NCBI GenBank assembly: GCA_951406725.2
Contig: OX597822.1
Span: forward strand, 55,490,001 to 55,554,000
Length of the DNA: 64,000 nt
Direction: 5' to 3'
Source: Octopus vulgaris
Lineage: Eukaryota
Shown: piece by piece, positions 21,080-52,337 of the stretch
How the letters are laid out: each line of letters opens with the position of its first letter
Numbering within the stretch: the first letter of the stretch is position 1
Translations under genes and position numbers: made by a program
The notes under the pieces: generated by a model
What the model saw: only the letters and a program-made list of their open reading frames with translations
Databases searched by the model: none
Told to the model about the DNA's origin: nothing

Positions 21080-21645
21080 ATATACAAAGAGTAAATATAT
21101 GGCACAACGAAGTACCGATATTTACTGGAAATAGCGAACGTAATAATACGACGCTAATGTATAGCTTCACCGCGTATGTACTAGCAAAAATGTTTGTGTG
21201 CAACAAACTAGAAAAAATCGTCTTACCTCCAGGGAGAACATCTGAAAGATGAAATACCTGGAAAAGGATAATGTGGGACCTGCGCAGGTTTCAGATTTTT
21301 CAAGATATGTCTGCCACCCATAAACTTGATCTATCTTCATCAGCCAAACATATACCACGACAACCTTTCAGATGTTACCACATTAATGCCATTACACTCG
21401 ACTGAAACGCCGAAACGCTAACAGCACGAGAACGGTGAAGAAGTTTCAATAAATTAGTAATGCAATACTAGAGTATTGCTTTCCAGTAAAGAATAGCCCG
21501 TGAGGGAAAAATATACAAAGAGTAAATATATGGCACAACGAAGTACCGATATTTACTGGAAATAGCGAACGTAATAATACGACGCTAATGTATAGCTTCA
21601 CCGCGTATGTACTAGCAAAAATGCTTGTGTGCAACAAACTAGAAA
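21080..21645 (-). mobile_element. Retrozyme-like element: 431-bp monomer with 135-bp partial tandem repeat
   Basis: 21080-21214 matches 21511-21645. Contains one complete HHR and no coding ORF. Abuts (TA)n. Confidence 0.8.
21274..21346 (-). ncRNA. Type I hammerhead ribozyme, canonical core
   Basis: Minus strand: TGG-CTGATGA-AGAT..ATCT-GAAAC-CTGCGCAG-GTC^CCA. Stems I, II and III pair, stem III is palindromic, and the triplet is GUC. Confidence 0.88.
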
Positions 21646-21820
21646 CATTGCACACACACACATTGCCATTGTTAACTTATTATTTCAGTCTTATTTTACT
21701 AAAGGGCGGGTAATATGTTCCAAAATCTATATTTTGAATTTAGTTTTATTCAAAATTACATCTCTCAACAGTTTAAAGCACATTTATTTTTCATTTGGTC
21801 AAATACTTGAAATGATACAA

Positions 21821-21914
21821 TAACCACTACGCCATATGCCCACGGACATATGGCGTAGTGGTTAAGAGCGTGAGCTACTAGCCCCAAGATTCCGAGTTCG
21901 ATTCCTAGCAGTGA

Positions 21915-21970
<56 letters not shown>

Positions 21971-22126
21971 GTAACAACATCGAAAAATACCTTAGGAATG
22001 AGAACCCAGGTTCGAAATTTCCCCAAGACACCTGATGAAGACTGGAGAGTATATCAGCCGAAACGTTGTTTTAACAACAAACAAGATGAAGACAAATATC
22101 CGTCAATTGTAAATAATGGAAATAAT
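21821..22126 (+). mobile_element. tRNA-headed element with 5' fold-back, (AAT)n linker and HHR-bearing tail
   Basis: 18-bp inverted arms at 21821-21838 and 21847-21864. A box TGGCGTAGTGG, B box GAGTTCGATTC. CTGATGA (22032) ..CAGCC-GAAACGTT (22060). Possible TSD ATACTTGAAAT at 21803-21813 and 22127-22137. Confidence 0.75.
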
Positions 22127-22391
22127 ATACTTGAAATAACTACAGGGGAGTGGAGTAAAATTGGTAACTGGGGCAAAATGAGTAATTACCAATTTCTCGT
22201 TATTTTTTCACTACCTGCTTGGAACCTTTACATTGCAAGTGTTGCATCACCATTTTGTACTCTTGCATCATCTGTGGGAGTAAAAATTACCCACCATAAT
22301 TGTTGTTGCAGTCGAGACAGTTTGAAACAGTCAGGTAATATGTACTTCTCTTCAAGAAATTTGTCCTCATCTTTGACCCAATTGTAATTAA

Positions 22392-22690
22392 GATGGCCTA
22401 GTGGTTAGAGCAGAGGACTCTCGGTCGTGGGATCACGTGTTCGAATCTCAGACGGGCCATGTGTGTGTTTATGAGCGAAACACCTAAGCTCCACGCGGCT
22501 CCGGAAGAAGGTAATGGCGAACTTCTGCTGACTCTTTCGTCACAACTTTCTCTCACTCTTTCTTCCTGCATCTTGCAGCTCACCTGCGACGGACTGGCGT
22601 CCCTTGCAGGTGGAGAACCTAAACGCCAAGGAAACCGGGAAACCGGCCATTATGAGCCAGGCGTGGCTCGAGAGGGAACAAGCAATAACA
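22392..22690 (+). mobile_element. tRNA-derived SINE
   Basis: A box TGGCCTAGTGG, B box GTTCGAATC. Head and body are related to the truncated SINEs at 30587-30833, 37040-37285 and 44044-44232. Confidence 0.8.
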
Positions 22691-22896
22691 TATCTAGATA
22701 ATTTTGGTGTTTAACAACCCAAATCCTTTTTTCTGTAGGATTGTAAGTCAGTTTTCTTTGACACTAATGTCTAATCTGATAATTTTCAATTTCCAAAAAC
22801 TGATGTCTATACTGGGACAAAATGGGTAATGACTAATTTCAATAATCTCATGGTGTGTAAATGTATCAGGAAGAGAGCCAGGGGGCGGGTTCTGCT

Positions 22897-23338
22897 TTAA
22901 GTACCCCATATAACATCTCATAAGTTTTTCTAGTTTTTTTTAATTTTCAGAAAATTTTTGTAAATTTGTATTCTACACATGGGAATTCATACACCTATGA
23001 ATAAACAAAACAAAACAACAAAAAAAGATTTTGTGTCTGATTTAAGGGCTAGTTAGATGTTACTTTTAGCATATCTCACGGCCATCTGGTACCCTCCTTC
23101 TTTCTTTGTGACTCTTCTCCCCACAAACAAGTTTAATGGTCTATTGCTGGGATTTAATTCAAAATTTTGGACTGTCTGTAATTAAAAAACTAAAAAATTC
23201 GATGGACTGTCTGTAATTAAAAAACTAAAAAATTCGAAAAATCAAAAAGAAATTTTTTTTCATAGTTGTATGAATCCTCGTGTGTTTTGAAAATTCCAAA
23301 AAATTAAAAAATTACGATCGGTTATATAGGGTGCTTAA
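22897..23338. mobile_element. MITE with imperfect long TIRs
   Basis: TTAAGTACCCCATATAAC pairs with GTTATATAGGGTGCTTAA. The inner ATTCATACACCTATGA pairs with CATAGTTGTATGAAT. Confidence 0.65.
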
Positions 23339-23498
23339 ACAAGAATTTTGCAGAGAGCCACTCCAGCAGATCGTGAGGAAGCTACAGGGAATATTTTATG
23401 TTGAATTTTTTGATTAACATTATACCATTTTCCCATGATTCCTTTTCATTTGACTTAGGTATCTGTGTGTATGAGTTTATGTATATATATATATATAT

Positions 23499-25051: not shown

Positions 25052-25189
25052 GTATATATGTATATATGTATATATATTTTTTTTTCTGTTTGGGTTCTTT
25101 TTTTCTTGTTTCAGCTCAGAGCTGCAGCCATGCTGATGCACCGCCGTTTTGTGCTACACTGTTATTACTAAGAGCCTCCTCTAATATGT

Positions 25190-27900
25190 GGCACTGGTGA
25201 AGAATGGAGTTTGATATAGCTACTCTCATTTGCACCTCTTGCCGTGAGGTAGGTTCATCTGGGACTCTTCGACAGGAAGATGTCCAGCTTTGATTTAAAA
25301 CCGCTACATCTACTTTGTGCAAGTTCCTCAGACTCTTTGGAAGAATATTAAAAAGCTGTGGGCCCTTGAAACCTGGGCTGTTGCAGTAGCTGGTCCTGAA
25401 GCGTGATGGCATTGCTGGGATCTTTGGCACTATGCAGTGTCGTCCCGTTCTGGCATTGGTGTAGCTTACAATGCCAAAATTTGGCACAATTCCTTCCAGG
25501 ATTTTCCAGATATATATTACTGCATACCTCTCCCGTCTTCTCTCCAGGGAGTAGAGTCTTAGCTGTTTCAACCTTTCCCAGTAGCTGAGCTGTTACAAAG
25601 AGACGATCTTCTTTGTGAATCTTCTCTGGATTGCTTCAAGGTCCGCTGTTAATTTCACACTGGTGGGTGACCATAGCTGTGAGCAGTAATCCAGGCGGCT
25701 GAGGACGAATGTCCGCCAGAGGACCATCATGGTTTCCTTATCTCTGGTTCTGAATGTTCTTAGGATTCATCCAGCCAGCCGTCTGCACTTTGTCGCCATC
25801 CTGGTAATGTGCACTTGGAAAGAAGTATCACCACTCATGTCGATACCCAGGTCCCTCACAGACTTAGGCTCTGGGATTGAAATTCCCTGTGGACCGGTGT
25901 ATCCTATAAGTTTAATATTCAGTTTTGGATGCTGGTAGCGCAGTGCCTGGAATTTTCAGCATTAAACTGCATATTATTATCTTCAGCCCATCTGTAGATT
26001 GAGTCCAACTCCTGCTGCCGGTGTGCAACATCACTGGTGTTCTGTATTTTCTGCGAGACTTTCGTATCGTCTGAATATCTTGCCAGAGTGGCTATCTGGG
26101 CATTTGAGGGCATATCTGAGAGGGCCACTATAAAAAGCACTGGTCCCAAGACAGTGCCCTGTGGAACACCGCTCACTATTTGTGTGTTCATAGAGGTGGC
26201 TCCATTAACAACTACTGCCTGACCCCTATCTTTCAGGAAGTCATGTAACCACACTCCATGTTTTCCAGCTATGCCGAGGTCACGCAGTTTGTGGCATATC
26301 ATACCATGATCCACCTTGTCAAAAGCTTTTGCAAAATCAAGGTATATTATGTCCACGTTTGATTTGTTGAGTAACTGCCTCAACACCCAGTCATAATGTT
26401 GTAAGAGCTGGGTCAGGCAGTTCCTACCTGGTCGAAAACCATGCTGTGTATCACTCAGCAAGTCATTTTCCTCAAGGAATGCGATTAGTTTCCCTCTGAC
26501 TATCCGTTCCATGACTTTGCTGATGTGTGAAGTCAGAGAGATAGGCCTATAGTTTTTGGCATCTGCTCTACTTCCCCCTTTATGTATTGGGCATATTATT
26601 CCCTCCTTCAGCTTGCTAGGCAGTTTGCCATTTGTAAGAAAACTCTGGAAGAGAATCTTGAGGGGTTTTGCCAGGGCATGCTTACACGCTTTTAGGAGGA
26701 TTGCTGAGAAACCATCAGGACCAGCAGTTGAGCTTGTATCCACTTCATCTATGGCTAGTAGTACATCTTCTTCGCTAATGTCAATGTATTCTATTGTAAC
26801 TGTCTCGCTAGTTATAGGTGAGGCGGCAAAGAAGTCCACTGGTTCGTTCACTTGTCTGTGTTCCAACGGGGTGGTAAAGACACTTTTGAACTGGCCATTC
26901 AGTATCTCACTGATCTTAGTTGGACTGTCTGTGAGGGAGCCATCCTTTTGGAGGAGGGGTCCTATCTTTTAGTGTACTGAGGCTGTTTCTTTCGCATAAT
27001 GAAAGAATGCCTAAAATTTCTGGCATACGGCTTGCACAGAAGACATGAAACATTCTAGTTTCAAGTCAATGTCTAGTGTGGAAAGACATTTCGGCCAGTC
27101 CTCTCTGAGAATCTCTTTTTGGATCGATTTCCAATCTGCTTTGTGGAAGTTCAGATTAGAGAGATTTCGGGTGCTTCCTTTAGGCTGTATGTCTCTGGTC
27201 ACTTTCGGCCCAAACATTGACAGCTCTATTATGTTGTGATCCGAGACTAATGTCGGTGTCACTTTCACATCATGAATGATGTCCATATAGTTCGTGAAGC
27301 AGAGATCCAGAATGTTATTCGCCCCAGTTGGTTTGAGTACAACTTGCTCCATGAATAAGGCATTGGTGAGGTTGAGCTGGGACTCCACCTGTACTTGCTT
27401 GCAATGATTCATTCCTGAGAGTATGAGACCTTCGGGCCATTTGACGTTGGGGAAGTTGAAATCACCCATAAGAAATATGGTCACGTGGTGTTCCAGATTC
27501 ATGGGGATTTCTTTAATAATTGTGAGGCAATCTTCAAACTTGCCTATGTAATTTGGAGCATCCGGTGGGCAATATGTATTGCATATGACTATATTATGTT
27601 GTCTTATGTATACAATTAAAGTGTCACATACCGAACTTGAGTATGTCAGTAAAACCTGGGGTGTGAGGTCATCCCGGATGTATACAGCAACTCCACCATA
27701 GCTCCTTTCCCTTCTGTCTGTTCGCAGTGTGGTATAGTTTGGTACATGTACTTCTGCGTCCTCTATATCAGGGCTGAGGTGAGTTTCCACGAGTGCTATG
27801 CATAGGGCTTGATTGCATGCAGTAAGATCTCTCAGGAAAGAAATTTTTATTTTTATTTTGATGCAACAGGCCCCCAATATTTAGTAAAAGTATTGGGGTG
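25190..27900 (-). pseudogene. LINE ORF2 (endonuclease plus reverse transcriptase), frameshifted and internally deleted
   Basis: ORF pieces 27011-27877 (APE), 25919-26866 (RT) and 25116-25571 (C-terminus). Confidence 0.9.
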
Positions 27901-28829
27901 ACGGCTGAGCAGGTGTTAGGGGAGGTCATCCCGTGTCTGTTGACTGTAATGGCCTGGCATAGTGGTGGGCAAGGTTCCTTTGTGCTTGGTGTAGCCAGGT
28001 TAGCTGCTGGACAATCCTTTGCGCCATGCACAAAAAAGACTCTTGCTCAGCTGCTGCGTTGCGCAGAACATCTGAGGAGCACACTTCTTTTCTGAATGTT
28101 TTCCTGGAAGACATTTCTTGTCTTTCCTCAGTAAAGCTTTTCTCTTTGAGTCCCCTGAAGTTCTGGCGGGGTGTCGAGTGGGCGAACCGACAGTTTTTTC
28201 CGTCCTCCCCATGTCAACATTTGCCCCGCAGGTAGAATTTACAGGTTCTTGGATGCCTTCAAGATATCTTCGTTCCTGAAGTGTAGTGGGTGGCGTTGGA
28301 TCCTCCATGGGGTTTTCAGCTGTTTGTGTGGAGGTTGGGGTTTCAGCTTTGGTGGTTTTGCCTTTTCCTTCCTTTCCTTCTTTATTTTTGTTTTCCGTCC
28401 TTTTTCCTTCTGTTTTTCTAATTTCTCATTTCTTTGTAGGATTACTGGTACACGGGGGCTTCCATTTTCTGCTCCCTTGGTTCCCCTATCCTTCTCTGCC
28501 TGGTCGTTCACTGGGGTAGGTGATCCATTTTCTTGAGGAACCTCTGGATTACAGAGACTTCCGGGTTCTTTTTCTTTTTCGTCCTCTTCATCCTTATTAG
28601 CCTTGCCGCAATACTTTTCAATTATGTTATCCAAGGTGTTGATGTGTGGTTTTATAAGTATGTAAGACCGGATAATTTCACTTTTATTCCGCTCTATTTG
28701 TTCAATGGTTCTATGAAAGCCATTGTTCTTTAGCGCAGCAATGATGATGTTGTTTGGTGGATCGCCACTAGCAATCATCTATGCTCGTAGTAGAAGATTT
28801 AACTCTTTCTTTTCCCACTTTGGTGCCAT
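27900..28829 (-). pseudogene. LINE ORF1 with Myb/SANT-like N-terminus and degenerate CCCH finger
   Basis: MAPKWEKKELNLLLRAW..ALKNNGFHRTIEQI, which is open in the copies at 35121-35711 and 41512-42102 but has W>stop here. An alternate frame reads CKFYLRGKC*HG..CRFAH. Confidence 0.65.
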
Positions 28830-29598
28830 CTTCGTTTTTAAAGCCCAGAGGGGGAGTAGAGGCTAGAACGGTAAGGAGAGATAGAGAGAAACAGAGACGG
28901 AGAAACACAGAGGGGAGAAATAGGGAAAGAGAGAGGGAGATATGAAGGAAAGAGAGAGATGCTATGAAAGAAATAGAGAGGGTGATATGAGGAAAGCAAG
29001 GGGGTGTGGCGTGTTAAAGAGATAGACAAAGGTAGAGAAGGGGGAGAGAAAGAGAGACAACGTGAGGGAGAGGAGAATAGAAAGAGAGACAGAGTGAAGG
29101 AGAAGAGGGGAAGAGAAAGAGAGACAGAGGGAGGGATAGGATAGCAAGAGAAAGAGAGACAAAGTGAAGGAGAGACAGGAAAGGATGAAGGATGTGAGAG
29201 AGAAGGAGAGACGGAGTGAGAAAAATGGGCAAATGAGAAGTATATGAGAGAGAGGGTGATGTGACGAGAGGAGAGGTAGATGTGAGATGGAAAAGAAAGA
29301 GAAGTGAGAATAGAGGAGGATATGAAAGGGAGGGAGAGAGATGAGAGAAAGTGTAAGATATGCAAGAGAGAGCGAAAGAGTAGGCGTAAAGAGAGATAAA
29401 GGAAGGGAGCGAGGAGCTGGAAGTGGAGGAATATATGTAAGGGAGGGGAAAGGAAGAGGGTAGATATGAAGAGAGTGGGGAGACCAAAGAAATACATAAT
29501 TCTAAACTAATTACGATTATATTTCTAACTCAGTCGTAACTCAGATCTTAACTTAAATTACAAGAAAATAAACAAATGAAAAGAATTTTAAATATTAT

Positions 29599-30012
29599 AG
29601 GCGCAGGAGTGGCTGTGTGGTAAGTAGCTTGCTAACAAACCTCATGGTTCCGGGTTCAGTCCCACTGCGTGGCATCTTAGGCAAGTGTCTTCTGCTATAG
29701 CCCCGGGCCGACCAATGCCTTGTGAGTGGATTTGGTAGACGGAAACTGAAAGAGGCCTGTCGTATATATATATATATATGTATGTGTGTTTGTGTGTCTG
29801 TGTTTGTCCCCCTAGCATTGCTTGACAACCGATGCTGGTGTGTTTACGTCCCCGTCACTTAGCGGTTCGGCAAAAAGAGACCGATAGAATAAGTACTGGG
29901 CTTACAAAAGAATAAGTCCCGGGCTCGATTTGCTCGACTAAAGGCGGTGCTCCAGCATGGCCGCAGTCAAATGACTGAAACAAGTAAAAGAGAAAGAGAA
30001 AGAGAAAGAGAA
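29599..30012 (+). mobile_element. Full-length tRNA-derived SINE, present only in unit U1
   Basis: GGCGCAGGAGTGGCTGTGTGG..GGTTCAGTCCC head and (GAGAAA)n tail. The empty site AAATATAAGTTTT is seen in U2 (~36475), with an equivalent site in U3 (~42848). Confidence 0.9.
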
Positions 30013-30550
30013 TAAGTTTTATAGAGATAAAATGAAAGATAGATTGAAAGCGAAGTGGACGCTGAAACAGAAATTGAAAGAAGATTATTCTCAGAATGTA
30101 AACGAAGATTGAGTGTAACTCGTAACTCAGATGCTAAAGTAAAATAAACAAATGAAAAGGATACTTATTCGCAAAAGGCAAAATCCGAATCCTCGTGCTT
30201 ATACAAAGAAGTTTTCTTTCAAAAAAGAAAAGAGAACAATTCCTTTTCCTTCTTACATTTGGCTGGAGATAAATTATAGACTTGCCACCAGGTACTTTTT
30301 CGGCGAAGAAACTCGCATACGTAACAAAATTTAATGTATTATATTTAGCTTCAAGCGAAATGTATTACAGTTTTCAATTAAAATATTTTAGTAGACCGTT
30401 ATGAGTTGACAAGTTCTACGTTTTGTTAGTTTTAGTAGATTATTTCGTCGATTTATGCAAACCTTTTTGTTTTTTTTCACAGAGTGAAAGCAAACACGTC
30501 CTTCCTCTATGAAACCGGAAGTATATAGGTATATATATATGTATATATAA

Positions 30551-30586
<36 letters not shown>

Positions 30587-30588
<2 letters not shown>

Positions 30589-30833
30589 CGGTTTCGATTC
30601 CCAGACCGGGCGTTGTGAGTGTTTATTGAGCGAAAACACCTAAAAGCTTCACGAGGCTCCGGCAGAGGGTGGTGATCCCTGCCGTACTCTTTCACCACTC
30701 TTTCTCCCAATCTTTCTTCTGTTGGCCTGCTCGCTTAGCCAGCGGGGTGGAGTCATTCGAAGGCTAAAACAATGCGAACGCATTGTGACCAGCGATGTGC
30801 AACTACATCTGATGGACTGGTCGGTCACGTGAT
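30587..30833 (+). mobile_element. 5'-truncated tRNA-SINE in (TA)n (paralogs 37040-37285, 44044-44232)
   Basis: B box GTTTCGATTCCC, body related to the 22392 SINE. Confidence 0.7.
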
Positions 30834-30969
30834 ATATATATATATATGATTTTAAACTGAATTCTAAGAACAAGGAAAGAGTCCACTCCACATTTAGCAC
30901 AAGTTGACAACATATTGCAGATGTGCTTAGTTGTCATTCTATTCAGCCCTTTTCAATGAATTTCATTAA

Positions 30970-31630: not shown

Positions 31631-31697
<67 letters not shown>

Positions 31698-32395: not shown

Positions 32396-33379
32396 ATAAT
32401 CATAATAATTTATCATTAGAATTACTTTCTACAAGTTGAAATTTAATGTGCTGTAAGACAGCTGTACATGGGACTATATTTGTCAGCCAATCTGAAATGT
32501 AAGGTATCACAGCAATTATAATTTTGTGAATGTTCATTTTGAAGGAAGTGACCTTTTTTCTGATCGAAAAGGAGAAAACTCTTCTATTCTTCATTTATCC
32601 ATTACCGTTCGATAATAGCAAAATCACTACAAAGCTGAATTTTTCACTGAGAAAACATTCAACAGACTGTTAAGACTTAATTAAAAGTTGATATGCATTT
32701 TTTTTAATGATTGTATCTGTTTAATATATCTTAACTTAATTTCTCTTGATTGAGCAGATCTCTGAACAAAGGCGTTCCTGCCATGAACATTTTATTTCAT
32801 TCCAATTATAATGCATCAAGTGCTATATCATCCAATATGTCCTTGCTTTAAGACAGAATAATGTGATTGGAAGTAGATTTGGTTGCTATTTCTGGTATAG
32901 CAACCACATAACTTCTCTCATAAGATCAAAATGTATCGTCTGTTCTCATAAGCTTTACCCTTTCCTTATTGTATTTATTTTGAGACGCTCTGTGTTTCTT
33001 TCAATTACTTTAAATATAACAAAGAATTTAGTAAAATAGCTTGGTTATCATTCAGCTAATGTTAGGAACATAAATTGTATCTAAGGTTCGGTGGCAGCTT
33101 TTAATTGAAAACTTATGTAAACAAGACATTTGTACCCAGTGCCAGAGCCGGTTTCAGCTGGGTTGGTAATGAAAGGGTTAATATGGGAACTTTGATTTTA
33201 AACTGAATTCTAAGAACAAGTAGAGATAGAGTCCACTCCACCTTTAGCACAAAGTGGGGGTGTTACTGTAGCTTTTAGCCTCAAGAGATCGACGTCTCAA
33301 GGTGGCTTTAGACACACTTTCTCTGCCCTTCATGTATTTGCAAAGGGAAGTCATCCCTTCCTCGTAAGCCTTAGTGATA

Positions 33380-33425
33380 CGCACCGGACCGCGGTTTCGA
33401 GATTATTGTCTCTTATCAACGGGCG
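33380..33425 (-). ncRNA. Variant hammerhead ribozyme (paralogs 39769-39814, 45681-45727)
   Basis: Minus strand CGCCCG-TTGATAA-GAGAcaataaTCTC-GAAAC-CGCG-GTC^CGGTGCG. The core has C3U and G8A changes. Confidence 0.65.
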
Positions 33426-33544
33426 GTAACCACCAGGTTACGATGAAAGGCAAGGCTTGCTTTGCAAATATATAAGAGTTTTTCTAGTGACGTCTGCCAC
33501 AGATTTCGAAAAACTGACTGTAAGCATTTTAAAATATCAGAGCG

Positions 33545-33990
33545 TGAAACAGTTGAGGGTGAGGACGAGCTCTGCCAGGCGGAGAAGGGTGGGGGTGCCG
33601 AGGGTGGGGTCGGGACGACGGTCGAGGAAGTGTTGGAGGGCTAAAAGACCCTCATTGTGGGGAATTAACGTTTACATGGATTTTATGTCTAAGGTGAAGA
33701 GGAGGTGTGAGGGGCTGGAAGGAAAGGAAAAGGAATTGAAGGGATGGGAAGGCTGCGACTAAGAGGGACAGGATGCGGTCGAGGTATAGGGAAAGGTGTT
33801 CAGTGGGGCAATTACAGGCGGAAACGATGGGGTGGCCAGGGTTATTGTGTTTATGAATTTTGGGAAGGAAATAGATGGTGGAGGTGCGGGGTGTGCGGAC
33901 GATGAGGTTGGTGGCGGTGGGGGGGAGAGCAGAAGAAGAGATGAGGTCGTGGATGGTGGAGGACACTCGCTGTTGGTAGGAAGAGGTGGG
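33545..33990 (-). pseudogene. Penelope RT fragment (paralog 39935-40382)
   Basis: DPTSSYQQRV..YFLPKIHK.NNPGHPIVS..CPTE.LS.YLD.IL. Confidence 0.85.
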
Positions 33991-36380: not shown

Positions 36381-38052
36381 ATTCTAAACTAATTACGATT
36401 ATATTTCTAACTCAGTCGTAACTCAGATCTTAACTTAAATTACAAGAAAATAAACAAATGAAAAGAATTTTAAATATAAGTTTTATAGAGATAAAATGAA
36501 AGATAGATTGAAAGCGAAGTGGACGCTGAAACAGAAATTGAAAGAAGATTATTCTCAGAATGTAAACAAAGATTGAGTCGTAACTCGTAACTCAGATGTT
36601 AAAGTAAGATAAACAAATGAAAAGGATACTTATTCGCAACAAGGTAAAATCCGAATCCTCGTGCTTATACAAAGAAGTTTTCTTTCAAAAAAGAAAAGAG
36701 AACAATTCTTTTTCCTTCTTACATTTGGCTGGAGATAAATTATAGACTTGCCACAACGTACTTTTTCGGCGAAGAAACTCGCATACGTAACTAAATTTAA
36801 TGTATTATATTTAGCTTCAAGCGAAATGTATTACGGTTTTCAATTAATATATTTTAGTAGACCGTTATGAGTTGACAAGTTCTACGTTTTGTTAGTTTTA
36901 GTAGATTATTTCGTCGATTTATGCAAACCTTTTTTTTTTTTTTTCACAGAGTGAAAGCAAACACGTCCTTCCTCTACGAAACCGGAAGTATATAGGTATA
37001 TATATATGTATATATAAATATAAATATATATATATATATCGCGGTTTCGATTCCCAGACCGGGCGTTGTGAGTGTTTATTGAGCGAAAACACCTAAAAGC
37101 TCCACGAGGCTCCGGCAGGGGGTGGTGATCCCTGGGGTACTCTTTCACCTCTCTTTCTCCCACTCTTTCTTCTGTTGGCCTGCTCGCTTAGCCAGCGGGG
37201 TGGAGTCATTCGAAGGCTAAAACAATGCGAACGCATTGTGACCAGCGATGTGCAACTACATCTGATGGACTGGTCGGTCACGTGATATATATATATATAT
37301 GATTTTAAACTGAATTCTAAGAACAAGGAAAGAGTCCACTCCACATTTAGCACAGGTTGACAACATATTGCAGATGTGCTTAGTTGTCATTCTATTCAGC
37401 CCTTTTCAATGAATTTCATTAACAGTGAAATCCTAGTCATGGCCAATGGCAGTGCCACCTTGCTGGCACCTGTGCAATTGGCATGTTAAAAGCACCATTT
37501 AAGCGTGGCTGATGCCAGTGCCACCTGACTGCTTCCCATACCAGTGATACTTAAAAGGTACACACTACACTCTCAGAATAGCTGGTGTTAGGAAAGGCAT
37601 CCTGCTGTAGAAACCTTGCCAAATCAGATTGGAGCCTAGTGCAGCCACCCGGCTTGCCAGCTTTCAGTCAAACCGTCCAACTCATGCCAATATGGAAAGT
37701 GGATGATTAAGATGATAATGATTATAATCATAATAATTTATCATTAGAATTACTTTCTACAAATTGAAATTTAATGTGCTGAGCTATTAGCAAGTTTAAC
37801 AACTTTCTGGAAGACAGCTCTACATGGGACTATATTTGTCAGCCAATGTGAAATGTAAGGTATCATAAGATATTATAATCATAATAAAATTTAATGTGCT
37901 GTATGGCAGCTGTACATGGGACTATATATCTATATATATATATAGGCATTATTAAATCTCAGAGCGAGATGTAAACAGTAACCGCTCAACAACGTAAAGT
38001 ACAGAAGCCATCTCAATATGGCTAACCACAAAGTTGGGGTGTTACTGTATAT

Positions 38053-38112
<60 letters not shown>

Positions 38113-40382
38113 TTAACAGACCATTACTTTGTCTGAATTTCATTCACAGTGTGTTACTGAAACTTGTTTTTGACTTTGCACTTGAATAGTCATTGTATTT
38201 GATTGATACTTTTATACACATTACAGCAAACATTCATTCAAGGATAGGTTACTGACATGAATTGGTTCCAACAGGTTGATTATGAGTCAATTTGGGTTCA
38301 TCAGCCTATAGGTCAACATAGTTTTGATTTATCTCTTTAAGGTATATTCTCAGGTAAAAGTCCCGCACAGTATTCTGTATTATACTATATATTGGTAATA
38401 GTCAAAAGTTTTGGAGTGTCAAGTCAAATGAAGATCATAGAAATCAAGTGAGTCATTGGGCAATATACTGTACTTGTGAAGACCTGTTGAACTGAGTAAA
38501 ATCCTAGTCATGTCCAATGTCAGTGCCGCCTGACTGGCAGCTGTGCAAGTGTTATGTTAAAAGCACCATTCAAGCGTGACTGATGCCAGTACCACCTGAA
38601 TGGTTCCCATGCCAGTGGTACTTAAAAAGCACCCACTACAATCTCAGAATAGTTGGTGTTAGGAAAGGTATCCTGCTGTAGAAACCTTGCCAAATCAGAT
38701 TGGAGCCTAGTGCTGCCTGTTGACTTACCAGCTCTCAGTCAAACCGTTCAACCTATACCAGTATGGAAAGTGGATGATTAAGATGATGATATTATAATCA
38801 TAATAATTTATCATTAGAATTACTTTCTACAAATTGAAATTTAATGTGCTGTAAGACAGCTGTACATGGGACTATATTTGTTAACTAATCTGAAATGTAA
38901 GGTATCACAGCAATTATAATTTTGTGAATGTTCATTTTGAAGGACGTGAGCTTTTTTCTGATCGAAAAGGAGAAAACTCTTCTATTCTTCATTCATCCAT
39001 TACCGTTCGATAATAGCAAAATCGCTACAAGGCTAAATTTTTCACTGAGAAAAATTCAACAGACTGTTAAGACTTAATTAAAAGTTGATATGCATTTTTT
39101 TTAATGATTGTATCTGTTTAATATATCTTAACTTAATTTCTCTTGATTGAGCAGATCTCTGAACAAAGGCGTTCCTGCCATGAACATCTTATTTCATTCC
39201 AATTATAATGCATCAAGTGCTATATCATCCAATATGTCCTTGCTTTAAGACAGAATAATGTGATTGGAAGTAGATTTGGTTGCTATTTCTGGTATAGCAA
39301 CCATATAACTTCTCTCATAAGATCAAAGTGTATCGTCTGTTCTCATAAGCTTTACCCTTTCCTTATTGTATTTATTTTGAGACGCTCTGTGTTTCTTTCA
39401 ATTACTTTAAATATAACAAAGAATTTAGTAAAATAGCTTGGTTATCATTCAGCTAATGTTAGGAACATAAATTGTATCTAAGGCAGCTTTTAATTGAAAA
39501 CTTATGTAAACAAGACATTTGTACTCAGTGCCAGAGCCGGTTTCAGCTGGGTTGGTAATGAAAGGGTTAATATGGGAACTTTGATTTTAAACTGAATTCT
39601 AAGAACAAGTAGAGATAGAGTCCACTCCACCTTTAGCACAAAGTGGGGGTGTTACTGTAGCTTTTAGCCTCAAGAGATCGACGTCTCAAGGTGGCTTTAG
39701 ACACACTTTCTCTGCCCTTCAGGTATTTGCAAAGGGAAGTCATCCCTTCCTCGTAAGCCTTAGTGATACGCACCGGACCGCGGTTTCGAGATTATTGTCT
39801 CTTATCAACGGGCGGTAACCACCAGGTCACGATGAAAGGCAAGGCTTGCTTTGCAAATATATAAGAGTTTTTCTAGTGACGTCTGCCACAGATTTCGAAA
39901 AACTGACTGTAAGCATTTTAAAATCTCAGAGCGTGAAACAGTTGAGGGTGAGGACGAGCTCTGCCAGGCGGAGAAGGGTGGGTGTGCCGGGGGTGGGGTC
40001 GGGACGACGGTCGAGGAAGTGTTGGAGGGCTAAGAGACCCTCGTTGTGAGTAATTAACGTTTACAGGGATTTTATGTCTAAGGTGAAGAGGAAGTGTGAG
40101 GGGCTGGAAGGGAAGGAAAAGGAATTGAAGGGATGGGAAGGCTGCGACTAAGGGGGACAGGATGCGGTCGAGGTATAGGGAAAGGTGTTCAGTGGGGCAA
40201 TTACAGATGGAAACGATGGGGTGGCCACGGTTATTGGATTTATGAATTTTGGGAAGGAAATAGATGGTGGAGGTGCGGGGTGTGCGGACGATGAGGTTGG
40301 TGGCGGTGGGGGAGGGGAGAGCAGAAGAAGAGATGAGGTCGTGGATGGTGGAGGACACTCGCTGTTGGTAGGAAGAGGTGGG

Positions 40383-42752: not shown

Positions 42753-43415
42753 ATTCTAAACTAATTACGATTATATTTCTAACTCGGTCGTAACTCAGAT
42801 ATTAACTTAAATTACAAGAAAATAAACAAATGAAAAGAATTTTAAATATAAGCTTTATAGAGATAAAATGAAAGATAGATTGAAAGCGAAGTGGACGCTG
42901 AAACAGAAATTGAAAGAAGATTATTCTCAGAATGTAAACAAATATTGAGTCGTAACTCGTAACTCAGATGTTAAAGTAAAATAAACAAATGAAAAGGATA
43001 CTTATTCGCAAAAGGCAAAATCCGAATCCTCGTGCTTATACAAAGAAGTTTTCTTTCAAAAAAGAAAAGAGAACAATTCTTTTTCCTTCTAACATTTGGC
43101 TGGAGATAAATTATAGACTTGCCACCACGTACTTTTTCGGCGAAGAAACTCGCATACGTAACTAAATTTAATGTATTATATTTAGCTTCAAGCGAAATGT
43201 ATTACGGTTTTCAATTAATATATTTTAGTAGACCGTTATGAGTTGACAAGTTCTACGTTTTGTTAGTTTTAGTAGATTATTTCGTCGATTTATGCAAACC
43301 TTTTTGTTTTTTTTCAGAGTGAAAGCAAACACGTCCTTCCTCTACGAAACCGGAAGTATATAGTTATATATATATGTATGTATAAATATAAATATATATA
43401 TATATATATATAAAT

Positions 43416-44020
43416 AAAATAAATATAAGAGAGTGGTCACTATATTGCTCACTCTAGCACCAGTTAATCCAAAAGGTTTCAACCACAAAAATACATGTTT
43501 CCCATGAAAGTCAGTACGATTGTTAGCTCACACGGACAGGGCAAATAAAAAATAACAAAAATACAGATTATTTTGGGACAATTGTTTCGCTATTAATGAA
43601 TTAAATGTAATTTTACTTACAAAAAAATCCACTTGTAGCTCGTCAGCCAAAACTATCTGGATGAAATCCACTCAATCACACGCCAGATTTTACCATAACG
43701 ATAAATACACGTGTGGTTCAATTGATTACATCCGACGTTATAATTCAAATGCCCCAACTAACAGCGCGCCAAACTTTCACGGAAAACAAATACTGCATTT
43801 AGAAATAAATGCAGCATAATTATAATTAATTAATAAGGGTGAGAGAATTAGATACTAATTTAATAGTATATCTATTCAACACCAAGTGGCCTAGTGCTCC
43901 GAGAAACCTGGATTATTATAATATTTTATAATATATTATAATATTTTTACAAAATAAATATAAGAGAGTGGTCACTATATGTCTCACTCTAGCACCAGTT
44001 AATCCAAAAGGTTTCAACCA
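43416..44020 (-). mobile_element. Retrozyme-like element: 535-bp monomer with 70-bp direct terminal repeat, inserted in (TA)n of U3 only
   Basis: 43416-43485 matches 43951-44020. U1 (~30560) and U2 (~37030) have plain (TA)n at this site. Confidence 0.85.
43571..43652 (-). ncRNA. Type I hammerhead ribozyme, canonical core
   Basis: Minus strand TTTTGG-CTGACGA-GCTA..TAGC-GAAAC-AATT-GTC^CCAAAA. Confidence 0.9.
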
Positions 44021-44850
44021 TATATATATATATATATATATATCGCGATTTCGATTCCCAGACCGGGCGTTGTGAGTGTTTATTGAGCGAAAACACCTAA
44101 AAGCTTCACGAGGCTCCGGCAGGGGGTGATGATCCCTGCCGTACTCTTTCACCACTCTTTCTCCCACTCTTTCTTCTGTTGGCCTGCTCGCTTAGCCAGC
44201 GGGGTGGGGTCATTCGAAGGCTAAAACAATGCACCTGTGCAATTGGCATGTTAAAAGCACCATTTAAGCGTGGCTGATGCCAGTGCCACCTGACTGCTTC
44301 CCATACCAGCGGTACTTAAAAAGCACACACTACACTCTCAGAATAGCTGGTGTTAGGAAAGGCATCCTGCTGTAGAAACCTTGCCAAATCAGATTGGAGC
44401 CTAGTGCAGCCACCCGGCTTGCCAGCTTTCAGTCAAACCGTCCAACTCATACCAATATGGAAAGTGGATGATTAAGATGATAATGTTTATAATCACAATA
44501 ATTTATCATTAGAATTACTTTCTACAAATTGAAATTTAATGTGCTGAGCTATTAGCAAGTTTAACAACTTCCTGTAAGACAGCTCTACATGGGACTATAT
44601 ATGTCAGCCAATCTGAAATGTAAGGTATCATAAGATATTATAATCATAATAATTTATCATTAGAATTACTTTCTACAAATTGAAATTTAATGTGCTGTAT
44701 GACAGCTGTACATGGGACTATATATCTATATATATATATATAGGCATTATTAAATCTCAGAGCGAGATGTAAACAGTAACCGCTCAGCAACGTAAAGTAT
44801 AAAAACCATCTCAATATGGCTAACCACAAAGTGGGGGTGTTACTGTATAT

Positions 44851-44949
<99 letters not shown>

Positions 44950-45844
44950 CAGAGAGAGACAGAGACAGAGTTAACAGACCTTTACTTTGTCTGAATTTCA
45001 TTCACAGTGTGTTACTGAAACTTGTTTTTGACTTCGCATTTGAATAGTCATTGTATTTGATTGATATTTTTATACACATTACAGCAAACATTCATTCAAG
45101 GATAGGTTACTGACATGAATTGGTTCCAACAGGTTGATTATAAGTCAATTTGGGTGCATCAGCCTATAGGTCAACATAGTTTTGATTTATCTCTTTAAGG
45201 TATATTCTCAGGTAAAAGTCCCGCACAGTATTCTGTATTATACTATATATTGGTAATAGTCAAAAGTTTTGGAGTGTCAAGTCAAATGAAGATCATAGAA
45301 ATCAAGTGAGTCATTGGGCAATATACTGTACTTGTGAAGACCTGTTGAACTGAGTAAAATCCTAGTCATGTCCAATGTCAGTGCCGCCTGACTGGCAGCT
45401 GTGCAAGTGTTATGTTAAAAGCACCATTCAAGCGTGACTGATGCCAGTACCACCTGAATGGTTCCCATGCCAGTGGTACTTAAAAAGCACCCACTACAAT
45501 CTCAGAGTAGTTGGTGTTAGGAAAGGTATCCTGCTGTAGAAACCTTGCCAAATCAGATTGGAGCCTAGTGCTGCCTGTTGACTTACCAGCTCTCAGTCAA
45601 ACCGTTCAACCTATACCACTATGGAAAGTGGATGATTAAGATGATGATATTATAATCATAATAATTTATCATTAGAATTACGCACCGGACCACGGTTTCG
45701 AGATTATTGTCTCTTATCAAACGGGCGGTAACCACCAGGTCACGATGAAAGGCAAGGCTTGCTTTGCAAATATATAAGAGTTTTTCTAGTGACGTCTGCC
45801 ACAGATTTCGAAAAACTGACTGTAAGCATTATTAAATCTCAGAG

Positions 45845-47985
45845 CGTCAAACAGTTGAGAGTGAGGACGAGCTCTGCCAGGCGGAGAAGGGTGGGGGTGC
45901 TGGGGGGTGGGGTCAGGACGACGGTCGAGGAAGTGCTGGAGGGCTAAGAGACCCTCGTTGTGAGGAATTAACGTTTACAGGGATTTTATGTCTAAGGTGA
46001 AGAGGAGTTGTGAGGGGCTGGAAGGGAAGAAAAAGGAATTGAAGGGATGGGAGGGCTGCGACTAAGGGGGACAGGATGCGGTCGAGGTATAGGGAAAGGT
46101 GTTCAGTGTGGCAATTACAGGCAGAAACGATGGGGTGGCCAGGGTTATTGGGTTTATGAATTTTGGGAAGGAAATAGATGGTGGAGGTGCGGTGTGTGCG
46201 GACGATGAGGTTGGTGGCGGTGGGGGGGGAGCAGAAGAAGAGATGAGGTCGTGGATGGTGGAGGACACTCGCTGTTGGTAGGAAGAGGTGGGATCGGAGG
46301 GGAGGAGGCGATAGAAGAGGGGATTTTGAAGCTGGCTGAGCGCTTCCTCCCTGTATAGATCTGCGTCCCACACCACCACTGCTCCGCCTTTGTCCGCCGG
46401 TTTGATGATAATGTCATTGCGGCGACGGAGGTGGCGAAGGGCAATCAATTCAGCCCGAGTGAGGTTGGCTCGGAGAGGTGTTTTTTTAAAGTTAAACTGG
46501 TTGACCAACGCGTTGTAGTCGTTCACGAACAAATCTAGGCTACTGAATTGGCCTGGGGGCGGCGTCCAGTTGGATGGGTAGCGCCCCAGCTCCAAAAAGC
46601 AATCCTGATTGTCGTGACGCTGCGGGGACGCGTGGAAGAATGCGCCAAGTTTGAGGCGGCGCAGGAACTGGTTGACGTCGGTCCGAGTCTCGAATTCGTC
46701 ACAGTGGCGCGTGAGAGGCGTGAAGCGGAGTCCCTTACTGAGGAGAGAGCGCTCGGCAGCGGAGAGGGGGAGATTGGGGGTGTATAGTGACAACAGTGCG
46801 AGGAAGCGGGGTGGTGGGTAAGGAAGAGGGGGTGCAGAGGTGTGCGGAGGAGAGTGAGGGTGGTTGGGTGAAGATGGGGTAGGCGTAGGAAGGTCAGGGT
46901 GGGGTGTGTGTGGGTCCGTAGAGGGGGAAAGGGGAGGGGTGGTGGGTGCGGGATAGGAGGGAGTCGGAGGAGCTGGAGGGGGAGGATGTAGGGGATGGGG
47001 ATGGGGGGAAGGAGTCGAAGGGTTGAGGAGGTGGTGGAGTTTTTTGTGTGTGTGAGGAAATTGTGAAGTTGGTGGTTGAGATTAAGAATGAAGAGGAGAA
47101 TAGGTTGGGTGAAGAGTGGAGGGCAGTGGAGGGCAGAAGGAGGTAAGCCTGGGGATGTTGGTGGTCAAGGGAGTGAAGGAGAGAGCGGGTGGAATAGATG
47201 GTTGCACGGATGAGGAGGCGGGAAGTGCGGGCGAGGGTGGGTTCGATGAGGGGAGAGGAATAGGGGGTGGCGTGGAACTTCAAGAGGAAGCCACGGGGTG
47301 TGACGTGATGGCGGAGGCAACGGCTGAGGAAGGAGAGATAGCTAGTGTGGCGAGTTTTTTTAAAAAGTAAGTGAGAAAGTATTTTTGCGGGTTGTAAACA
47401 TTGGGCGGGGAAAAAAGCGAGAAAGCGGCTAAGAAGGGATTGAAGGTGTTGGACGAACGAGTGCAAGTCAGGCATGTTGCGAAGTGGTGAATGTTTGTGT
47501 AGGTGTAAGTGGTGGCGACACAAGTGGAAAAATGGAGGTAGAAGAAGAAAGGTAAAGAAGGAAAAAGAACGAGGAAAAAGTTCGAGGAAAAAAAAAGTTC
47601 GAGGAAAAAAAAGTTCGAGGAAAAAAGAGTTCGAGGAAAAAAGAGTTCGAGGAAAAAAATTATTGTAGAGTCACGCGGACAGATTTTTTTTGATTTCCAA
47701 TCACGATTTCAGTGGCGTACTCCGGAAGAATGGTAACAGTAATCCGTAGGTGTAAAAATCCAGGAATTGGTATCCAAGACACTCAGTATCCGTGTGAGCG
47801 TACGGTATATAAAGTTAATCCAAACAAGAAAACACAAAAAAACACAAAAAACACAACAACGCAAGGACGTGGAACAAATAAAATATTATTGAACGCTCAG
47901 GAAAGAAAGGAAGAAGGAGAGTTTAACGTTTCGAGCGGAGCTCTTCGTCGGAAACATAGGAGAAGGAAAGATCCCGAGAAGGGTG
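45845..47985 (-). mobile_element. Penelope-like retroelement, 5' part (pLTR, N-terminus, DKG region, RT start), 3'-truncated
   Basis: LS.AERSLLSKGLRFTP, NLTRAELIALRHL..DIIIKPADKGGAVVVW, LPKIHKPNNPGHPIVS and LFTLDIKSL motifs. pLTR at 47812-47985 has a minimal HHR variant at 47921-47955. Confidence 0.9.
47569..47660. repeat. ~17-19 bp tandem repeat (GTTCGAGGAAAAAAGA), about 5 copies, in the Penelope 5' region
   Basis: Seen directly. Confidence 0.85.
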
Positions 47986-48883: not shown

Positions 48884-48942
<59 letters not shown>

Positions 48943-49251: not shown

Positions 49252-49304
<53 letters not shown>

Positions 49305-49354
49305 GTATATATATATGTGTGTGTGTGTATATATTTTTTAAAATTTTATTTTTT

Positions 49355-51078
49355 ATTTTATCTAGTTTCAGGTCACAAACTGTGGCCATGCTGGGGCACC
49401 GCCAATTGGTGTTGCTACATGATTTTACTTCACGAATGCTTTTTAGCAAAACCCATCTGGTGCATGAGAGAGTTCGATGCATCTGCCCTCATCTGCACCT
49501 CCTGCCGTGAAGTTGGTTCATCTGGGACACCTGATAGGAAGAAATCCAGTTTTATTTTAAAGACATCTGCATCCATCCCATGCAGGTCTCCCAGGTCCTT
49601 CGGGAGGATATTGAAGATCTGTGGGCCTCGGAAGCCCAGGCTATCACAGTATCTTGTCCTATATCTTGATGGCAAATTTGGAGTCTTTGGCACTATGCAG
49701 TGGCGCCCAGTTCTAGCATTTGTGTAACTCTCGATGCCAAAGCTTGGGACAAGTCATTCTAGGATCCTCCAGATGTATATTATGGCATATCTTTCTCGCC
49801 TACGCACTAAGGAATAAAGTCTTAATCTCTTGAGTCTTTCCCAGTAGCTTATATGCTGCACAGAGGCTATTTTCTTCGTGTAGCTTCGTTGGATCGCCTC
49901 AAGTTCTGTGATTAACTTGACACTGGATGGTGACCATAGCTGGGAGCAATAGTCAAAGTGGCTTAGGATAAGTGTCCTCTCCAGAGGACCATCATGATTT
50001 CCTGGTCTCTTGTTCTAAAGGTTCTAAGAATCCATCCGGTCAGCCGCCTAAATTTCATTGCCAATTTAGCAACATGCACATGAAAAGTTGCATCATCACT
50101 CATGTAAATACCCAAATCTCGCACTGATTGTGCCTCTGGGATTGCAATCCCTCCGGGTCCAGTGTATTTATTGGGTATTGCATTTAGTTTTGCATGCTGA
50201 TAACATAGAGCTTGAAACTTTTCAGCATTGAACTGCATGCTATTCTTTTCAGCCCACTTGTATATTTTGTCCAGCTCACATTGCAGGTGCACAGTGTCTT
50301 CAGGGTTCTGTATTGCCCGTGAAACTTTTGTATCATCTGCATAACTTGTGATCGTGGCTCTCTGCGTGGCTGAGGGCATGTTTGAGAAGGCCATTATAAA
50401 CAGTAGTGGTCCCAAAACAGTGTCTTGCGGAACACCGCTCACTATTTGCGTGTTATTGGAGGTGGTCCTATTGGCTACAACTTCCTGACTTCTATCCTTC
50501 AGAAAGTCATGAAGCCATTCTCCCAATTTTCCAACTATGCAAAGATCACGCAGTTTGTGACATATCATTCCATGATCGACTTTATCAAAGGCCTTTGCAA
50601 AGTCGAGATATATTACTTTCACATTTGAGTGGTTGAGCAGTCGTTTCAGCACCCAGTCATAGTGTTGTAGGAGCTGAGCTAGGCAGCTTCTTCCTGGTCG
50701 GAAACCATGTTGGGTGTCAGGCAGCAAGTCATTTTCTTCAAGGAAGGTGATTAGTTTCCTTCTGACTATTCGTTCCATGACCTTGCTGATGTGTGAGGTC
50801 AGAGAGATAGGTCTGTAGTTCTTGGCCTCCGCTCTGCTACCTCCTTTATGAATAGGGCATATTTTACCTTCCTTCAGTTTTCTTGGAAGTTTGCCAGTTG
50901 CAAGGAAGCTCTGAAAGAGGAACTGCAGTGATCTTGCTAGGACTCTCTTACATACTTTTAGAAGGATTGCTGGGAATCCATCGGGGCCAGTAGCTGAGTT
51001 TGTTTTCATTTCATCTATAGCCTCTATTACATCGTCTTCCTTTATATTGATGTAATCATTCATCGTTGCCTCTGATTC
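49355..51078 (-). mobile_element. 5'-truncated CR1-group LINE (second subfamily), RT ORF 49963-51063
   Basis: GPDGFP, NYRPISLTS, YLDFAKAFDKVDH and YADD motifs. The 3' tail is homologous to that of the 25095 element. Confidence 0.92.
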
Positions 51079-51084
51079 TATATC

Positions 51085-51159
<75 letters not shown>

Positions 51160-51340
51160 ATTAGGGCTTAGTAAATTAATTACTTTGCCACATACTGAAC
51201 TTAGTAGAAATAGCAGCCAAAAAAAATTTTTTTACCCATTTCTACTACTTAAAGAAAATTTCTCTCAGATAATGTTTACTCCAGACAGCTCACGAAGGTT
51301 TGGAGGTAAATACAGAAAAATATCACAAGTACATAGATCG

Positions 51341-51403
51341 TTTGAGTACGTCAACGTTTCAAGATTAGCCAAATAAAATCAGCATTTCTTTCGTCAGCTC
51401 AAA
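51341..51403 (-). ncRNA. Type I hammerhead ribozyme, inverted copy
   Basis: Reverse complement of 51944-52006, with one substitution in the stem II loop. Confidence 0.85.
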
Positions 51404-51943
51404 ATTTCTTAATTTGGATTTGGAAACACTAAAAAGAAGGAACTTTACCTATCGGCGAACTTGTCGCTTCAAATGAACCAGCTCCAACTGCCAGTGCCAA
51501 CAAATTCAAAATGCGCAGGCGTAAATTTCTGCACTCCTTTTCCACCCACGTGGTCTATCTAGCAAACATTATATTTTAACCGCGAGAACCAAGGCATGGC
51601 AAAGTAATTAATTTACTAAGCCCTAATTATATAATGTAATATTTTGAATTCGCCTTAAATGGTCCTTTTACATACTGAACACTTGGTGAAATTGATTAAT
51701 TAATTTTACCCTCAATTGTTGATATTATAATTCATTTCTCTCTGTCATACTGCCTTGGTTCTCGCGGTTAAAATATAATGTTTGCTAGATAGACCACGTG
51801 GGTGGAAAAGGAGTGCAGAAATTTACGCCTGCGCATTTTGAATTTGTTGGCACTGGCACTTGGAGCTGGTTCATTTGAAGCGACAAGTTCGCCGATAGGT
51901 AAAGTTCCTTCTTTTTAGTGTTTCCAAATCCAAATTAAGAAAT

Positions 51944-52006
51944 TTTGAGCTGACGAAAGAAATACTGATTTTATTTGGCTAATCTTGAAACGTTGACGTA
52001 CTCAAA
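51944..52006 (+). ncRNA. Type I hammerhead ribozyme, canonical core
   Basis: TTTGAG-CTGACGA-AAGA..TCTT-GAAACGT-TG-ACGTA^CTCAAA. GUA triplet, predicted cut after 52000. Confidence 0.9.
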
Positions 52007-52281
52007 CGATCTATGTACTTGTGATATTTTTCTGTATTTACCTCCAAACCTTCGTGAGCTGTCTGGAGTAAACATTATCTGAGAGAAATTTTCTTTAAGT
52101 AGTAGAAATGGCTAAAAAAATTTTTTTTGGCTGCTATTTCTACTAAGTTCAGTATGTGGCAAAGTAATTAATATACTAAGCCCTAATTATATAATGTAAT
52201 ATTTTGAATTCGCCTTAAATGGTCCTTTTACATACTGAACACTTGGTGAAATTGATTAATTAATTTTACCCTCAATTGTTG

Positions 52282-52337
<56 letters not shown>

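Follow-up and report, generated by a model that had tools for sequence, protein, structure and literature searches.

A window of 64,000 nucleotides from Octopus vulgaris (contig OX597822.1, positions 55,490,001 to 55,554,000 of the forward strand; coordinates below are those of the window) contains three elements, here called E1, E2, and E3, each of which carries a type I hammerhead ribozyme motif and touches (TA)n. The question raised by this locus is what kind of element they represent and by which machinery they have been copied. The initial annotation had described three unrelated monomers, each followed by a partial tandem repeat, and had proposed that they are ribozyme-processed, possibly circular RNAs mobilised in trans by Penelope-like elements (PLEs). 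As shown below, we consider E1-E3 likely to be non-long-terminal-repeat (non-LTR) retrozymes that are copied in trans by a Neptune-type Penelope reverse transcriptase (RT)/endonuclease. The three elements are arranged as follows, where site A is one of two fixed 3' ends found in each family.

21085..21645, minus strand: E1, a 431-bp monomer plus a 130-bp 5' partial repeat, with 3' site A on (TA)n
43416..44020, minus strand: E2, a 535-bp monomer with a partial repeat of 70 bp, within the (TA)n tract of copy 3 in a local triplication
51597..52289, plus strand: right arm of E3, a 560-bp monomer plus a 133-bp partial repeat, with the long 3' site (tail) on (TA)n
51144..51596, minus strand: inverted left arm of E3, with the short 3' site on (TA)n and a second hammerhead (C3 at 51397)

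The periods were confirmed to be exactly 431 (E1), 535 (E2), and 560 bp (E3), with 129/130, 68/70, and 132/133 identical nucleotides in the respective repeated parts, and the sequences are as unrelated as had been claimed, given that the best E value in cross-family BLAST was 0.13. The description of E3 as a monomer with a partial repeat fits its right arm, while the inverted second arm at 51144-51596, ~99% identical to the right arm in the opposite orientation, had been overlooked; because the fourth hammerhead of the window sits in this arm, E3 is read as a single two-armed insertion between two (TA)n tracts. The association with (TA)n stands in that all three elements touch it, E2 and E3 on both sides and E1 at the 3' end alone. 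The GC contents of the monomers are 0.39 (E1), 0.32 (E2), and 0.34 (E3), all under 45%, and no stop-free frame of at least 120 aa is present among the frames listed for them. An identity as tRNA-derived short interspersed nuclear elements (SINEs) was considered and rejected, since the A and B boxes of RNA polymerase III (pol III) gave no match to simple patterns in E1-E3; ARAGORN reported 0 tRNA genes in the window.

The hammerhead motifs of the three elements are located as follows.

21270..21350, minus strand: type I hammerhead of E1, with C3 at 21343, predicted cleavage after 21277 (GUC), and the palindromic stem III CCUGCGCAGG
43568..43655, minus strand: type I hammerhead of E2, with C3 at 43646, predicted cleavage after 43577 (GUC), stem III CAAUUG, and a long stem II hairpin
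right arm of E3, plus strand: type I hammerhead of E3, with C3 at 51950, predicted cleavage after 52000 (GUA), and stem III CGUUGACG, a near-palindrome

All three thus have the complete core, the NUH triplet, and the short palindromic or near-palindromic stem III noted in the initial annotation; stem II spans 44 (E1), 51 (E2), and 30 nt (E3), and stem I beside the core of E1 is of 3 bp only. A strict hammerhead descriptor found four motifs in the window and none in any of 100 dinucleotide-preserving shuffles made in 2-kb blocks. In an Rfam scan of the window, no hammerhead match to E1-E3 was present among the 150 of 221 matches listed, which are mostly false matches of microsatellites to microRNA models, and only a further element described below (E4) was scored, as a weak HH9 under the gathering score. 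Also, a genome search with RF00163 gave six matches among 73 scored candidates, all to other hammerhead families and none to E1-E4.

The core is conserved across genomic copies in all three families: at its 11 positions, substitutions amount to 4/607 in E1 (vs 1.74% elsewhere in the monomer, P 0.02), 6/1282 in E2 (vs 1.26%, P 0.003), and 8/829 in E3 (vs 2.34%, P 0.003), the P values being optimistic because the aligned rows are related copies. The position N7 is variable in E2 and E3; about half of the depth carries the other letter at N7 of E2 in the public run X7, in which 0/21 listed variable sites fall in the invariant core. In stem III of E1, a double change from U-A to G-C that keeps the palindrome occurs in nine aligned rows, and one E1 insertion has the central 4 nt replaced by another palindrome in its two arms, a swap that would be needed by a dimer and not by a hairpin. 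When folded as circles, the monomers are predicted to be highly self-paired, with z scores of -5.1 (E1), -9.7 (E2), and -4.4 (E3) in the hammerhead sense and -2.6, -7.1, and -3.0 in the antisense (25 shuffles each). Self-cleavage and RNA circles of E1-E3 are predictions.

The link to PLEs comes from the copies of E1-E3 in the genome (2.8 Gb, 227 contigs). Whole-monomer searches gave 1517 (E1), 1160 (E2), and 1630 (E3) first-look candidates, which are not copy numbers and of which 40 were scored per family; the best full-length matches were 96-99%, 98-100%, and 95-99% identical, respectively. A second search used 65-83 nt near the 3' end to avoid selecting full monomers alone. Pooling of the loci gave 53 (E1), 39 (E2), and 48 (E3) insertions, and of these 140, 80 are inverted, 57 are single-armed, and three extend beyond the fetched stretch and were excluded from end counts, with the number of single arms and the classes of 3' ends depending on how BLAST trims ends in AT-rich sequence. 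E1-E3 are independent, high-copy, non-coding families, as these copies support.

In each family, the arms end at two fixed 3' sites, A and B: namely, about q426-q5 and q63-68 in E1, q14 and q140-146 in E2, and about q472 and q4-8 in E3. The two sites are spaced by ~65 (E1), ~130 (E2), and ~90 nt (E3), each lies at a short TA-like motif, and (TA)n follows the arm ends in 68/81 (E1), 50/55 (E2), and 65/85 (E3) cases. The 5' ends of the arms are, on the other hand, variable and scattered. Among the inverted insertions, 74/80 have one A and one B end (30/32 in E1, 19/21 in E2, and 25/27 in E3), the remaining six have one odd end each, and the combination of A+A or B+B was found in 0/80; the inner junctions of the inverted arms are variable, and their outer ends are unlike. 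According to Craig 2021, a PLE insertion is a partial tandem that often includes an inverted copy truncated at the 5' side and that has a tail at one end only, and the tail has been described as the stretch between two internal RT start sites, both target strands being cut and extended while hammerhead cleavage is dispensable in vitro (Frangieh 2024, PMC11167929). Because the A+B ends match the one-end tail, the inverted 5'-truncated copy, and the two internal RT starts in these descriptions, we read the insertions as Penelope-type; the two fixed 3' ends, the inverted 5'-truncated arm, and the (TA)n targets support the view that E1-E3 bear the signature of Penelope.

Candidate partners reside in the same genome, and one of them is represented in the window.

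45841..47475, minus strand: disrupted 5' portion of an autonomous Neptune-type Penelope element, from the N-terminal region to the start of RT

Young PLEs that combine RT, a Cys-rich linker, and GIY-YIG are present in the genome; they are classed as Neptune-type by their linker motif, Nematis being also possible. In protein matches, RT was found and the match to GIY-YIG was weak and below the cut-off; the named homologues are from gastropod and coral only, at 47-50% identity. One young Neptune-type PLE has a frame of 1008 aa and many near-identical copies; in L121-L124 (e.g., G000:C1:32236500-32244000), this very young element has kilobase-long, CA-rich repeats as its pseudo-LTRs (pLTRs), and visual inspection showed, upstream of the open reading frame (ORF), a motif that resembles a hammerhead but has an unusual core. 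A second young Neptune-type family (L250-L279), with near-identical copies and open frames of up to ~784 aa, ends on (TA)n at two sites ~31 nt apart (a tail of ~31 nt), has A+B inverted arms in L253, L268, L277, and L279, and carries a U3-A8 hammerhead in 27/30 loci. A third Neptune-type family has left a 5'-truncated 3' end at about 19700-20360 (plus strand) of the window, which by eye resembles the end of the L125 ORF. Mobilisation in trans by PLEs, as had been proposed, is hence favoured by the insertion signature and by targets common to E1-E3 and a co-resident autonomous Neptune-type family, whereas no partner was identified among the three sampled families, which have no shared sequence with E1-E3.

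How recently this copying took place can be read from E2, which lies within a local triplication.

about 27100-46300: three segmental copies in tandem, each 6.4-6.9 kb long and 95-99% alike, with nested long interspersed nuclear element (LINE) and Penelope fragments
30522..30586: copy 1 ortholog of the E2 site, an empty (TA)n target
36989..37039: empty (TA)n target in copy 2, orthologous to the E2 site

E2 occupies the (TA)n tract of copy 3 alone, the corresponding tracts in copies 1 and 2 being empty. Of the three copies, 2 and 3 resemble each other most (459/465 identical vs 454/466 and 454/464), giving the tree ((c2,c3),c1), and because E2 is in copy 3 only, it was inserted after the last duplication; a target duplication is unreadable within the TA tract of the E2 site. 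With its best genomic matches of 98-100%, E2 is the youngest family. The triplication also supplies a relative chronology of insertions.

We propose the following course of events. A tandem copy would be transcribed through, the hammerheads would dimerise via the palindromic stem III and release monomers, and these would be ligated into highly paired circles. A Penelope protein would then nick both (TA)n strands, as suggested by Frangieh 2024 together with the genomic ends, and reverse transcription would start at two fixed internal sites, which lie downstream of the cleavage site by ~160-200 nt and 260-290 nt and have a short TA-like motif in each case. The two expected products are seen at the level of DNA, where they are variably truncated at the 5' side, often cross the cleavage site and exceed one unit, and in many cases form a head-to-head pair in which one arm ends at site A and its partner at site B. 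Unequal exchange, of which there are partial indications, may later reshuffle the arrays.

As for the template, 5' ends of arms within 10 nt of the cleavage site number 3/81 (E1), 4/59 (E2), and 0/85 (E3), where 4.0, 2.3, and 3.2 are expected. There is no pile-up of 5' ends at the cleavage site in the arms of E1, E2, or E3, and therefore cut linear monomers are not the main template; since the 5' ends ignore the cleavage site, the template would be either circular or uncleaved. Arms often exceed one unit and cross the cleavage site, with ~13 units in L131 and ~12 in L132, each a single A+B insertion of E2. In L174, L180, and L189, all units of both arms have the same diagnostic variants, which is the outcome expected from rolling on one monomer. 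Two haplotypes alternate in L131 within one A+B insertion, and L132 (G000:C28:10731500-10740000) repeats a 4-unit higher-order pattern imperfectly, almost three times, also within one A+B insertion. In public sequence data, E2 was found in 19 runs of seven studies under five organism labels, none of which is recorded as RNA. Four runs were examined as contigs only, in which ends, strand, and level are not readable: E2 in the run X1 is one 565-nt (535+30) contig that is closed and unbranched with no loose ends, and E2 in the other three is in 67-709 pieces.

Several of our observations weigh against the circular retrozyme copied by Penelope. The genome samples are the best-scoring candidates rather than random ones, and, as noted, the rows aligned for the core are related copies. 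The hammerhead is not the lowest-energy local fold for E1 or E3 (local fold z of 0.42 and 0.58, vs -5.57 for E2), and constraining the monomer to it costs 6.8 (E1), 5.6 (E2), and 2.9 kcal/mol (E3) relative to the free fold. Some stem III variants of E1 break the palindrome; as to covariation in stems, which had been suggested as a check, the double changes in stem III of E1 are in its favour, whereas the whole predicted rod was not above slid controls (2, 0, and 1 compensatory pairs in E1, E2, and E3 vs 0-1). No sequence common to E1-E3 and PLEs was found in the three Neptune-type families sampled. The mosaics in L131 and L132 are explained no less well by a multimeric template or by unequal exchange after insertion than by rolling copying, and the loop in X1, a run whose type is guessed to be RNA and where the depth is 15, fits a single circle and a collapsed tandem array equally and is only a hint. 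From published experiments, furthermore, one of nine Xenopus retrozyme dimers was cleaved (bioRxiv 10.64898/2026.07.22.740005), and the Anolis PLE in vitro uses unprocessed RNA, with hammerhead mutants still being inserted (Frangieh 2024, PMC11167929), so that a linear multimer template fits equally well.

The alternative that survives best is built on this last point: the template may be a transcript that reads through a tandem master and stays linear and uncleaved, inserted by Penelope in the same manner, with the hammerhead as a passenger or with a role at another step and with circles absent or irrelevant. The dispensability of hammerhead cleavage for insertion in vitro is consistent with such a template, as are the arms that read straight across the cleavage site, the disfavoured local hammerhead fold in E1 and E3, and the mosaic arrays, which mosaic masters could yield. 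We nonetheless regard it as improbable, though worth keeping in mind, since conservation of the cores and of the stem III palindrome extends over three unrelated families, and the same diagnostic variants recur in all units and both arms of L174, L180, and L189; the closed loop in X1 is a weak argument in the same direction. Copying with 5' truncation would, in addition, be expected to shrink the arrays over time unless they are regrown.

It is quite unlikely, in our judgement, that E1-E3 are solo or truncated pLTRs of autonomous Penelope families other than those sampled. In favour of this reading, three autonomous families were examined vs 17,390 first-look candidates for one endonuclease query, and in Xenopus 24/57 retrozyme families match known transposable elements, nearly all of them PLEs (bioRxiv 10.64898/2026.07.22.740005). 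One E3 copy also adjoins a fragment of a Neptune ORF (L214/L215); a Neptune-E3 chimera at L215 was rejected because a (TA)n spacer lies between E3 and the Neptune piece, which run on opposite strands. In 0/140 sampled insertions were E1-E3 seen to run into a Penelope ORF, which is why we do not take them as solo pLTRs, and tblastn with one Neptune protein gave matches at 7/180 loci. The sequence upstream of the 3' ends is instead the same monomer with its period unchanged, followed by an inverted arm or by flanking sequence, and this holds also in samples picked by 65-83 nt near the 3' end; ordinary solo pLTRs, which the initial annotation had named as an outcome that would overturn its proposal, were thus not what we observed. 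Among 52 single-arm 5' flanks, abutting sequence is common to only four pairs, and a coding extension on the 5' side shared between copies was not seen. Two of these pairs resemble terminal pieces of the element itself, a third is a repeat of the host that is also found next to the empty sites, and the fourth is a 75% match of unassigned nature.

Spread at the DNA level as satellite-like or MITE-like (miniature inverted-repeat transposable element) repeats with incidental hammerheads, to which the tandem arrays with higher-order patterns and the terminal inverted repeats in many copies might point, is very improbable and largely refuted by the A+B end rule common to an autonomous retroelement, along with the variable inner junctions and unlike outer ends of the inverted arms, the variable 5' truncation, the absence of the hammerhead motif from shuffles, and the bias of fold stability to one strand.

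Hammerhead-bearing families are not limited to E1-E3, and two more, E4 and E5, are found in the window.

33250..33545, minus strand: E4, with a U3-A8 core at 33419, at the broken end of a Penelope-like RT fragment (extent approximate)
39640..39930, minus strand: duplicate of E4 in triplication copy 2, with the core at 39808 (extent approximate)
45679..45845, minus strand: duplicate of E4 in triplication copy 3, truncated and decayed (core near 45720)
21845..22135, plus strand: E5, with a tRNA-like head, (AAT)n, a minimal hammerhead, and Penelope-type ends
about 60502-60662, minus strand: second copy of E5 in the window

E4, with 1167 first-look candidates, has a ~358-bp period in other copies, a tandem and inverted layout like that of E1-E3, and the U3-A8 core in 19/20 loci; it is older than the triplication, and its flanks are not always (TA)n. 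E5, with 1988 first-look candidates, has a complete hammerhead in 12/14 and the head pattern in 10/14 loci (L280-L293), including one trimer and several inverted copies, and its (AAT)n is variable. Its head is tRNA-like by eye only, ARAGORN making no call; E5, which is comparable to Sm-alpha, may be a SINE-like retrozyme driven by pol III and mobilised by Penelope. Elsewhere in the genome, another hammerhead family with a long stem II insert and a palindromic stem III was noticed at L225, L226, and L229, a schistosome-like compact motif at L224, and minimal motifs at L227 and L228. The window further contains the following.

53852-55057, minus strand: frame of 401 aa for a PIF1 helicase, which is probably part of a Helitron
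25116-27880, 33759-34928, 40148-41698, and 49457-51057 (minus strand): LINE fragments with apurinic/apyrimidinic endonuclease and RT domains, the last of which stops at the (TA)n bordering E3
3563-3949, minus strand: Mariner-type transposase fragment
14420-14547: ~128 bp that form a near-perfect inverted repeat, probably either a MITE or an inverted insertion that has collapsed

The mobilisation of animal retrozymes is so far a matter of hypothesis, in which PLEs are suspected helpers and circles suspected templates. What is added here is an insertion anatomy that ties ORF-free families unrelated to pLTRs to the PLE machinery, with unusually clear DNA evidence for the helper that can be counted: namely, two fixed ends, the A+B rule, and a shared target. 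The strict A+B pairing also gives an indication of how PLEs use their two RT start sites in vivo. Going further, E1-E5 may be at least five unrelated ribozyme RNAs that serve as true circular templates for a dimeric Neptune protein needing no pLTR homology, with one strand started from site A and the other from site B and with rolling that would yield multi-unit arrays in a single event; we put this forward tentatively, as a reading somewhat less likely than not. If true, this circular-template reading would be direct genomic support for the circular-template model of retrozyme and Penelope insertion, with E2 as a still-active test case. The very young E2 beside young, intact Neptune-type ORFs makes trans-mobilisation and templating by circles testable with the published in vitro PLE assay.

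The background on which the initial annotation drew, circular retrozyme RNAs in metazoans and a tie between retrozymes and PLEs, is published (PMC7229834; bioRxiv 10.64898/2026.07.22.740005). Non-LTR retrozymes have been reported in coral, mussel, and axolotl, in work that demonstrated circles and suggested PLEs as the helpers (PMC7229834), and the mussel, where circular RNAs were found, has Mytilus units of 350-390 bp (Cervera & de la Pena 2020, PMC7229834). No report of a cephalopod retrozyme was found in the literature searched, and Craig 2021 alone surfaced for cephalopod, Penelope, and hammerhead together, Repbase and most subscription journals being outside that search; a cephalopod is possibly a new host lineage for retrozymes. 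Like the retrozymes in PMC7229834, E1-E3 are non-coding, low in GC (32-39%), arranged in tandem with a single type I hammerhead per unit, predicted to be strongly self-paired, accompanied by co-existing PLEs, and present at about a thousand copies per family; sharing every sequence-level feature, they are most likely members of this known kind. They differ in that the monomers are 431-560 bp vs ~170-400 nt, that stem II has long inserts, and that at least four unrelated families occur in one 64-kb window. Also, circles are demonstrated for the former and predicted from DNA sequence for E1-E3, and the present analysis maps the targeting of (TA)n and the inverted insertions with two ends, while "microsatellite" and "cephalopod" are absent from the main text of PMC7229834.

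Animal retrozymes have also been proposed to be non-autonomous PLEs, from 31 vertebrates, three insects, and one coral, by an argument of pLTR homology and with local array growth being favoured (Li, Clavereau & Pollet 2026, bioRxiv 10.64898/2026.07.22.740005). Mobilisation by PLE proteins, sizes within 51-972 bp, and the occurrence of monomers, dimers, and multimers are common to those retrozymes and E1-E3; unlike them, E1-E3 are without homology to the three sampled PLE families, are linked to PLEs by insertion anatomy, and have multi-unit arms inside single A+B insertions. The schistosome SINE-like hammerhead elements Sm-alpha and Sj-alpha (PMC2770079) are a precedent for the tRNA-derived head plus hammerhead of E5, from which E1-E3 differ by the lack of pol III A and B boxes and E5 by its internal (AAT)n and Penelope-type inverted ends. 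Compared with the endonuclease-bearing (EN+) PLEs Neptune and Nematis, finally, E1-E3 have no ORF, tails of ~65, 130, and 90 nt vs 30-40 nt, and hammerheads larger than the minimal pLTR motifs. What the families in this window have in common with these PLEs is the partial tandems, the inverted 5'-truncated copy, the tail at one end, the two internal RT starts, the AT-rich or microsatellite targets, the hammerheads with a palindromic helix III, and the U3-A8 core variant (Craig 2021; PMC11167929; PMC4209133), the last of which was described in hammerheads of schistosome PLEs (Cervera & de la Pena 2014, PMC4209133).

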